Sequence record: OR844702
Reading direction: 5' to 3' (one strand)
Source of the DNA: Escherichia phage ECO104 4-5-2
DNA: 43,051 nucleotides
A program made the position numbers and the translations under genes. This document shows, in pieces, positions 3,366 to 4,093 of the stretch; position 1 is the first letter of the stretch, and each line of letters opens with the position of its first letter. The notes beneath the pieces are model-generated. The model saw only the letters and a list, made by a program, of their open reading frames with translations, searched no databases and was not told the DNA's origin.

Positions 3366-4093
3366 TAATTTTCAGGGGTTTTAAAACCGTGTGAATTCAG
3401 GGAAACTCCTGTATACTTACAGGACAATCCTGAGCCAAGCCTTATCAGTCCGCCTTAGGAGGCGCATATGATTACTAATTCTCAAATCTTTGACCTGTAC
3501 GAGAACACTGACCTTACCCAGCGTGAGATTGCTACTAAACTAGGTGTAGGTTGGAAGGTAGTGTTTAACCGTTGCAAGTCGCATTACTCATCACAGTACC
3601 GTAAAGAACGTCAATCCCGCTTGCTTGCTAAGTCTAAGTTAGGAAACCTGAACCCTATGACTGGCAAGACAGGGGATGACCACCCACGCTATAAGGGTGT
3701 GGTTGGAGATTCTAAAGGGTACTTAATGGTCTTAAAGCCTGAGTGGTACACTGGACGTAAGGGCAGTAAGCATATCTTTGAACATCACAAAGTAGTATGT
3801 GAGGCTCTCGGATTAACTGCTATACCTAAGGGCTGGACTGTTCACCACGTGAATGAGGTTAAAACGGATAACGTATTTGAGAACTTAGTGTTGATGACTA
3901 TGCAGGACCATATGAAGCTTCATAGTTATCTTAAGGAAGGTGCAACGACTATCTCGAAAGAGAGTACACTCAAGTGGGTGGAAGCGCACGGTACACCATT
4001 CAAGGTGTAATGATATAGTCTGTCCTATACAGTAATGTATAGCTGCACGTGATGGTGCGGGGGAGGATTAACGACCCTCCCTGAACATAAGAG
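3366..4093 (+). mobile_element. Group I self-splicing intron carrying an HNH homing endonuclease ORF
   Basis: Exon 1 ends in U (3365). P1 helix: exon aaaccct (3359-3365) pairs with intron ggggttt (3375-3381) with a U.G wobble at the splice site. Intron ends in G (4093). P7-like gatatagtc at 4012-4020. Splicing restores the conserved SASNP|NMQQLP (PNLQNIP-like) motif. Confidence 0.8.
3468..4010 (+). CDS. Intron-encoded HNH homing endonuclease
   Basis: 180 aa with an N-terminal HTH-like segment (LTQREIATKLGV) and a C-terminal HNH motif (HHVNEVKTDNVFENLVLMTMQDHMKLH); lies entirely within the intron. Confidence 0.85.
   Translation: MITNSQIFDLYENTDLTQREIATKLGVGWKVVFNRCKSHYSSQYRKERQSRLLAKSKLGNLNPMTGKTGDDHPRYKGVVGDSKGYLMVLKPEWYTGRKGSKHIFEHHKVVCEALGLTAIPKGWTVHHVNEVKTDNVFENLVLMTMQDHMKLHSYLKEGATTISKESTLKWVEAHGTPFKV

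Follow-up and report, generated by a model that had tools for sequence, protein, structure and literature searches.

The DNA polymerase gene of Escherichia phage ECO104 4-5-2 is broken within an invariant motif by a 728-nt segment carrying an HNH endonuclease gene, which raises the question of whether this segment is a working mobile intron, a relic of one, or an insertion of another kind. The window, meaning the whole stretch of DNA analyzed, is the 43,051-nucleotide sequence of record OR844702; all coordinates refer to it, and every feature of the polymerase locus lies on the + strand. A first-pass annotation had proposed that a group I intron bearing an HNH endonuclease gene splits the PNLQNIP-type motif of this family A polymerase, and matches to Rfam RF00028 and Pfam HNH_3, together with covariation among homologous introns, bear this proposal out. 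The segment is very probably a functional, mobile intron of subgroup IA2 that splices at U3365 and G4093, homes by means of a nicking enzyme of the I-PfoP3I type, and has the translation of that enzyme restrained by the hairpin P6b.

The interrupted polymerase gene and its exon join

Positions 1681-5100 of the window are 100% identical to Salmonella phage S.Kent 1-2-1 and to Listeria phages LM 4-11-1 and LM 4-14-1, and the shorter records of Escherichia phages ECO26.1 3-1 and ECO121 2-1-1 match across the portions that they cover. Among annotated phages, the nearest are vB_EcoP_PAS7 (88.6% identity) and vB_EcoP_P64441 (79.7%), two Escherichia phages of the Autographiviridae, subfamily Slopekvirinae. 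The DNA polymerase annotation of PAS7, like that of P64441, consists of two coding sequences that overlap; polymerases of this clade are thus naturally split, and the intron concerns the second coding segment of this two-part family A gene, polymerase part 2.

Exon 1 of part 2 occupies 3138-3365 (76 codons, MTKLASDFF...TTTGRLSASNP), as given by the list of open reading frames. Its frame stops after ...TTTGRLSASNP at 3365, the stop codon TAA following directly at 3366-3368, and is picked up again at 4094 by exon 2 (4094-5026), which reads NMQQLPRES... to its stop codon. Joined, 3138-3365 and 4094-5026 encode a protein of 386 amino acids that aligns without a gap to part 2 of both PAS7 and P64441. 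These two phages read ...RLS(A/T)SNPNMQQLPRES... uninterrupted and lack the segment 3366-4093 altogether, so that the element of intron plus open reading frame (ORF) is a presence/absence polymorphism among close relatives. The sequence across the window join, RLSASNP|NMQQLP, is identical to that of intron-less PAS7. In the Pfam family DNA_pol_A, exon 1 ends at profile position 126 and exon 2 covers positions 127-380 (E = 6e-21), and this continuity of the profile from 126 to 127 independently confirms the junction. The break after TTTGRLSASNP and the resumption at NMQQLPRES had both been recognized in the first-pass annotation, and the check that it had suggested, an alignment of the joined exons with homologues, restores the motif collinearly with PAS7 and P64441. 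The intron thus separates the Pro codon of the Pol A motif from the Asn codon that follows it, a position corresponding to P674|N675 of E. coli Pol I.

At the nucleotide level, the exon join reads ...TCAAACCCT|AACATGCAG... (3365|4094), and the intron-less PAS7-type target reads ...TCTAACCCGAATATGCAG... Intron-less alleles have TCT AAC CCG AAY ATG where the window has TCA AAC CCT | AAC ATG. Comparison of the DNA with intron-less alleles (CCG AAY) alone also permits the limits 3365-4092, a slide of one base; the limits are placed at 3366-4093 because of two rules of the ribozyme, each obeyed by 12 of 12 homologues: a U.G pair marks the 5' splice site, and the intron ends in G. In exon 1, pairing with the guide sequence of the intron requires A3359 and U3365, two bases at which the window departs from the intron-less alleles. 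A search for a co-conversion tract against PAS7 found divergence to be high along the whole of exon 1 with no concentration at the junction, giving no clear tract. Position 4042, the last base matched by Rfam, was rejected as the 3' end, since a frame joined there runs for 13 codons and then meets a stop. That match extends only through P9; P9.1, P9.2 and the 3' tail carry the intron on to 4093.

The practical value of these limits lies in correct annotation. The public records identical to the window in the regions searched are unannotated GenBank entries, and such records often list two "polymerase" ORFs plus an HNH gene; the joins 3365|4094 in polymerase part 2 and 31615|31867 in the terminase gene restore two essential genes.

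Ribozyme structure and covariation

The intron, 728 nt in length (3366-4093), belongs to group I, subgroup IA2, and has no P2. This assignment rests on the Rfam match, on the absence of the segment from PAS7 and P64441, on covariation across 12 introns and on the stability of the fold. The intron opens with UAA, which serves as an in-frame stop in unspliced RNA. The match to RF00028 spans 3356-4042 and the full model (positions 1-253, E = 3.5e-10) with 51.0 bits, 1 bit over the gathering score of 50; the small margin reflects the missing P2 and the counting of the ORF as a 487-nt insertion. For the ORF-less RNA, the minimum-free-energy fold has -88.8 kcal/mol (z = -4.57 against shuffles) and contains the same helices as the drawn structure except P7, which is a pseudoknot strand. 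A scan of 2900-5100 for sigma-70 promoters and terminators returned none on the + strand within the intron, and fewer sites than in shuffled sequences.

As read from the sequence, the last 7 nt of exon 1, AAACCCU (3359-3365), form the 5' strand of P1 and pair with the internal guide sequence GGGGUUU (3375-3381), which is the 3' strand. U3365.G3375 lies at the splice site and G4093 is the terminal base. This pairing, its U.G wobble and the terminal G are as the first-pass annotation had given them; the minimum-free-energy folding recovers P1, and three of its four distal pairs covary. P10 is weak in the window intron, AA/UU at best, versus 4 bp in the introns of PPWS1, RCIP0039, APK32 and Pf-WMP3.

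The 5' half of the core (3386-3444), defined by coordinates and pair counts, contains the 5' strand of P3, P4, P5, and the 5' strands of P6 and P6a. P3 pairs 3386-3393 with 3985-3992 and carries compensatory changes, P4 pairs 3397-3402 with 3428-3433 and is 100% paired across the alignment, and P6 pairs 3434-3436 with 3939-3941. P6a (3440-3444 with 3932-3936) has compensatory changes in five of its five pairs. The P5 hairpin (3407-3424) is extended to 7 bp, versus 3-4 bp in relatives, and this extension is found in the window intron alone. The 3' half of the core (3932-4020) comprises P6a', P6', J6/7, P7, P7.1, P7.2, P3', P8 and J8/7, and is overlapped by the ORF up to 4010. P7 pairs GACUAU (3947-3952) with AUAGUC (4015-4020) and is invariant in 12 of 12 introns. 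It is followed by P7.1 (3953-3962, CUCGAAAGAG), an A-GUA linker, and P7.2 (CACUC-AAGU-GGGUG, 3967-3980), the last with compensatory changes, as also seen in P8 (3993-4008). The placement of P7.1 and P7.2 between P7 and P3', linked by GUA, is a signature of IA introns (PMC3428280), and this signature is present in the window intron. The 3' peripheral domain (4025-4093) consists of P9 (4025-4042, 100% paired with six covarying pairs), P9.1 (4043-4060), P9.2 with a UAACGA loop (4061-4081, 100% paired with four covarying pairs), and the tail UGAACAUAAGAG up to the terminal G at 4093.

Covariation was assessed on the ORF-less RNAs of 12 introns, namely the window intron and 11 homologues from other phages with defined splice sites, using a hand-drawn structure of 74 pairs (P1, P3-P9, P7.1/7.2 and P9.1/9.2, with P3/P7 as a pseudoknot). 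Standard pairs fill 92.6% of the 829 pair cells, and compensatory changes on both sides occur in 39 of the 74 pairs, with nearly every pair covarying in P6a, P8, P9 and P9.2. The covariation score of the real alignment is matched by 0 of 500 shuffles. Sliding the 3' partners by 1-3 columns lowers pairing to 42% or less, a control that is somewhat biased in favor of the structure, this having been derived from the window sequence; the count of compensatory changes is independent of that bias. The conserved P3-P8 core with its P3/P7 pseudoknot therefore has covariation support.

The endonuclease gene, the P6b hairpin and the probable cycle of the element

The ORF at 3468-4010 encodes 180 amino acids and matches Pfam HNH_3 with 37.3 bits (E = 2.1e-9, cutoff 24.8), the HNH motif spanning residues 119-149 in the C-terminal half. 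In the protein alignment, H126, H127, N135, N139, H148 and H152 are invariant among 11 homologues. Full-length homologues are found by tblastn within the polymerase genes of many phages, with identities of 65% in Acinetobacter Friunavirus, 61-64% in PhAPEC5/7 and Shigella phages, 60% in Pseudomonas phiB1_1-like phages and in Providencia PS3, 57% in PPWS1, and 56% for P45 of Xanthomonas phiL7. The match to I-PfoP3I of Pf-WMP3 has 47% identity over 91% of the query (E = 2e-35). I-PfoP3I, which has been purified, is a nicking homing endonuclease; it recognizes positions -3 to +11 and makes its cut in the coding strand, 4 nt upstream of where the intron is inserted (PMC3428280). The window ORF is thus an HNH_3 protein of the I-PfoP3I type, for which nicking and homing activity is predicted. 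A PDB sequence search with the ORF returned nothing at E <= 1, the I-HmuI structure being among the PDB entries.

The start codon of the ORF lies within the P6a/P6b loop and its stop codon in J8/7. Its coordinates are those reported in the first-pass annotation, but the description of its location as a peripheral loop is inexact, since its 3' end (about 3932-4010, ~75 nt) also encodes P6a', P6', J6/7, P7, P7.1, P7.2, P3' and P8 of the core. The C-terminal peptide GATTISKESTLKWVEAHGTP is kept in intron-resident homologues and absent from the free-standing homologue of Vibrio phage MJW, a pattern of conservation expected if RNA constraints fix that stretch. Upstream of the ATG, the Shine-Dalgarno sequence AGGAGG (3457-3462) of the ORF sits inside the hairpin P6b (CGCCU-UAGG-AGGCG, 3451-3464). 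Across the 12 introns, 95% of the P6b cells are paired, with covariation in the outer two pairs (UA/CG and GC/AU). In the Pf-WMP3 intron, the ribosome-binding site likewise lies in stem P6b (PMC3428280).

Homology and anatomy together suggest how the element would operate, with splicing, the activity and cut site of the endonuclease, and translational control by P6b as its predicted components. The transcript would fold into the P1-P9.2 structure, and exogenous guanosine would attack after U3365, paired with G3375 in P1. The released exon 1 would then attack after the terminal G4093, joining ...AAC CCU to AAC AUG... and making the polymerase mRNA whole again, while translation of unspliced RNA would end at the UAA that opens the intron. 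Holding the Shine-Dalgarno sequence in P6b would limit or delay translation of the endonuclease, and ribosomes would in this way be kept from unfolding P7, P3 and P8 before splicing. In a mixed infection, by homology to I-PfoP3I, the enzyme would place a nick within a few bases of the insertion site in polymerase alleles that lack the intron. Recombinational repair from an intron-bearing genome would then copy the intron along with flanking exon bases, such as A3359 and U3365, that P1 needs.

A competing account sees the segment as a splicing-dead relic or a mere carrier of the endonuclease, the polymerase being assembled from fragments that end in ...SASNP* and restart at M4097. It draws on the clade's habit of encoding the polymerase in two coding sequences (PAS7 and P64441), on the weak P10, and on an ATG at 4097, one codon inside exon 2. 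It also has a parallel in Vibrio phage MJW, where a homologous HNH gene is free-standing between two polymerase fragments, with no intron detectable by Rfam; the MJW arrangement shows that a split family A polymerase is not necessarily lethal. However, the break in MJW sits just after the motif, whereas a break in the window would sit inside the invariant PN(L/M)Q motif. The ATG at 4097 has no Shine-Dalgarno sequence ahead of it, the upstream sequence being CAUAAGAGAAC. In addition, all core helices are intact and carry compensatory changes over 12 introns, and the U.G pair and terminal G are in place. This account is very unlikely, and a functional intron remains the preferred reading.

Relatives of the intron and the terminase intron of the same genome

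Introns in phage family A polymerase genes occupy three sites in E. coli numbering, 674 (SPO1, SP82, Bastille and Pf-WMP3), 676 (phiL7) and 881 (PhiI and W31) (PMC3428280). Site 674 (SNP|NMQ) is occupied in the window, PPWS1, PhAPEC7, APK32, RCIP0039, Shigella B2, Dor1 and Pf-WMP3. The first-pass annotation had pointed to the polymerase introns of T7-like phages as precedent, which is right in kind, the exact counterpart being the Pf-WMP3 intron at site 674 and not those of PhiI and W31 at site 881. Pf-WMP3 is a T7-like cyanophage whose IA2 intron is without P2, begins with UAA, carries an ORF from P6a through P7.2, and splices both in vivo and in vitro (PMC3428280).

The window intron shares with that of Pf-WMP3 the insertion between P and N at site 674, subgroup IA2 without P2, P7.1/P7.2, and the UAA start. 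[quoted passage not shown] The cores, by contrast, are only about 57% identical. In the window intron P5 is longer and P10 weaker, and its P9.1 and P9.2 are absent from the cyanophage introns of Pf-WMP3 and Dor1. Its host is a member of the Slopekvirinae with a naturally split polymerase. The window intron is nonetheless a further member of this experimentally characterized intron family.

The nearest sequences are those of APK32 (Acinetobacter Friunavirus), PPWS1 (Pectobacterium), RCIP0039 (Klebsiella), the N4-like phages PhAPEC5/7, and Shigella B2. They share the site and the full architecture including P9.1 and P9.2, with cores 67-73% and endonucleases 57-65% identical to those of the window. 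None of them is near enough to be the donor, and they are annotated merely as predicted introns or interrupted genes. The introns of phiL7 (Xanthomonas), PS3 (Providencia), BF25/12 (Dickeya) and phiB1_1 (Pseudomonas) belong to the same lineage of intron and endonuclease but sit 6 nt farther downstream, following Leu676 (NPNL|Q). In these introns the guide GGAGGUU pairs with AACCUU, whereas the window guide GGGGUU(U) pairs with AACCCU. The introns of the T7-like coliphages PhiI and W31 (I-TslI) share with the window subgroup IA2, the T7-like polymerase gene and an HNH ORF in P6a, and differ from it in their site, 881; those of SPO1, SP82 and Bastille (I-HmuI, I-HmuII and I-BasI) share its insertion site, 674 (PMC3428280).

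The window thus adds a member of the Slopekvirinae to a family of introns and endonucleases that, in at least seven phage lineages, has settled in one and the same invariant motif of the polymerase. The family is an example of homing elements following targets that are conserved and under functional constraint. The site, RNA fold, ORF placement and enzyme family had all been described before, and the locus opens no new question.

The same genome carries a second group I intron of 251 nt in the terminase gene (31616-31866), with the join ...ADLLIPDD|IETTKNG... and a P1 of GACGAU with GUCGUC. It is the second Rfam RF00028 match in the window (31551-31804, 65.4 bits), P1 being mis-assigned in that match to an exon hairpin. 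Both window introns are IA2, without P2, with a UAA start, and share AAACC..UGAAUUC.GG.GAAAC, GAUAUAGUC, and an identical P9.2 stem, GGGGGAGG/CCCUCCC. The first-pass annotation had noted the homology of the two introns and had taken it to imply spread within one genome; the common architecture and shared strings are real, but the spread is not borne out. In a 16-sequence alignment, used since a MAFFT alignment of the two window introns alone is too crude for judging homology, the core of the polymerase intron is 54% identical to that of the terminase intron, versus 65-73% to the polymerase introns of eight other phages. For the terminase intron, identity reaches 97% with its counterpart in Klebsiella phage RCIP0039 and 85% with those in ZX22 and Henu2_3. 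The alignment of the two cores, offered in the first-pass annotation as a check, speaks against spread within the genome.

A duplication or transposition of the terminase intron into the polymerase gene, the origin that these shared features might suggest, is accordingly less probable still than a splicing-dead relic. The strings AAACC..UGAAUUC.GG.GAAAC and GAUAUAGUC are universal core elements, seen in the Rfam consensus. The terminase introns of RCIP0039, ZX22 and Henu2_3 have extra sequence downstream of P9, and the HNH gene annotated there in ZX22 lies in the P9.1 region, unlike the polymerase-intron ORF, which lies in P6a. The shared P9.2 hairpin, GGGGGAGGA..UAACG..CCCUCCCU, is native to the terminase lineage and was considered as a sign of exchange within the genome. 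This sign is weakened by an identical copy of the P9.2 and tail of the polymerase intron in an ORF-less intron at another site in the polymerase gene of Pseudomonas phage PaoP5, and by a similar stem, GGGAG/CUCCC, in the phiL7 intron. Since P9.2 is identical in PaoP5, it is a widely shared module. Least probable of all is that the locus holds no intron, being an intein or a free-standing endonuclease insertion with non-coding flanks: an HNH gene does lie between two polymerase ORFs, and many phage annotations say just that the polymerase is interrupted by HNH, but the stop codon immediately after exon 1 and the out-of-frame ORF exclude an intein, and a bare insertion is excluded by the Rfam group I match and the covariation-backed ribozyme fold, which account for all the non-coding flanks.

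On these identities, the polymerase and terminase introns are best read as independent acquisitions from two site-specific lineages, because each has its nearer relatives in other phages, inserted at the site that it occupies itself. Between the two window introns, P9.2 may have been exchanged as a small module, though this is improbable and nothing requires it. A broader reading, in which phage IA2 introns evolve by shuffling of modules such as P9.2 and by retargeting of the guide, beyond site-faithful homing, seems doubtful. It is suggested by identical P9.2 stems on cores of different lineages, and, for retargeting, by the occurrence of one lineage at both AAC-CCU| and AAC-CUU|, sites separated by 6 nt, a switch made through the change of a single base in the guide.

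Insertion sites in phage polymerase genes

Comparison of other phage polymerase introns (loci L006, L008, L009 and L010) with the P1 region of the window (3359-3381) shows one lineage of intron and endonuclease at two positions of the DNA polymerase motif, separated by 6 nt. Insertion occurs either 3' of AAC CCU (Pro674) or 3' of AAC CUU (Leu676), with site-matched guide sequences of GGGGUU and GGAGGUU, respectively, and the two target sequences are near-repeats of one another.

In Vibrio phage MJW (OR248150, 229-2868), a free-standing homologue of the window's intron endonuclease, approximately 50% identical to it, lies between two polymerase fragments. 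The break is located directly 3' of the motif that holds the window's intron site (...SSPNLQNISN*), and an Rfam search of the MJW locus returned no group I match. The MJW polymerase gene is 'fractured'. In homologues that reside in introns, the RNA core codes for a C-terminal tail of the endonuclease; the MJW protein has no such tail.

Pseudomonas phage PaoP5 carries an ORF-less IA2 intron in its myovirus DNA polymerase (975-1236; site ...YGLTK|...), shared by about 15 Pakpunavirus records. Its insertion site differs from that of the window's polymerase intron; the P9.2 hairpin and 3' tail (GGGGGAGGAUUAACGACCCUCCCUGAAC) are identical in the two.

The terminase intron

The second group I intron of the window interrupts the large terminase gene at 31616-31866 (251 nt) and is an ORF-less IA2 intron without P2, whose excision yields the exon join ...ADLLIPDD|IETTKNG.... 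Its P1 pairs GACGAU (31610-31615) with GUCGUC (31626-31631). The Rfam match spans 31551-31804, ending at P9, and wrongly places P1 on an exon hairpin. Between this intron and its counterpart in the terminase gene of Klebsiella phage RCIP0039, identity reaches 97% in the core but only about 83% in the flanking exons, a disparity that suggests recent horizontal transfer.

Identical records and additional genes at the polymerase locus

Window regions 1681-5100 and 31300-32100 are 100% identical to records bearing different host names, namely Salmonella phage S.Kent 1-2-1, Listeria phages LM 4-11-1 and LM 4-14-1, and Escherichia phages ECO26.1 3-1 and ECO121 2-1-1. One phage sequence was apparently obtained from several enrichments, and the host labels are therefore unreliable.

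The polymerase stop codon is overlapped by a second HNH_3 ORF of 158 aa (5013-5489; E = 3e-9), which is a free-standing endonuclease gene; PAS7 carries an HNH-motif gene at the equivalent position.

An insertion of about 195 nt (2933-3146), absent in PAS7 and P64441, lies exactly at the boundary of the split polymerase's two natural halves. It encodes an ORF of 66-70 aa (MMSKFQDIEYHL...KEYHD), for which a Pfam search gave no match and a search of the phage collection found homologues only in the identical records. This ORF has taken over the original start codon of polymerase part 2, and the near-repeat ATGAGTAAG / ATGACTAAG flanks the insertion.
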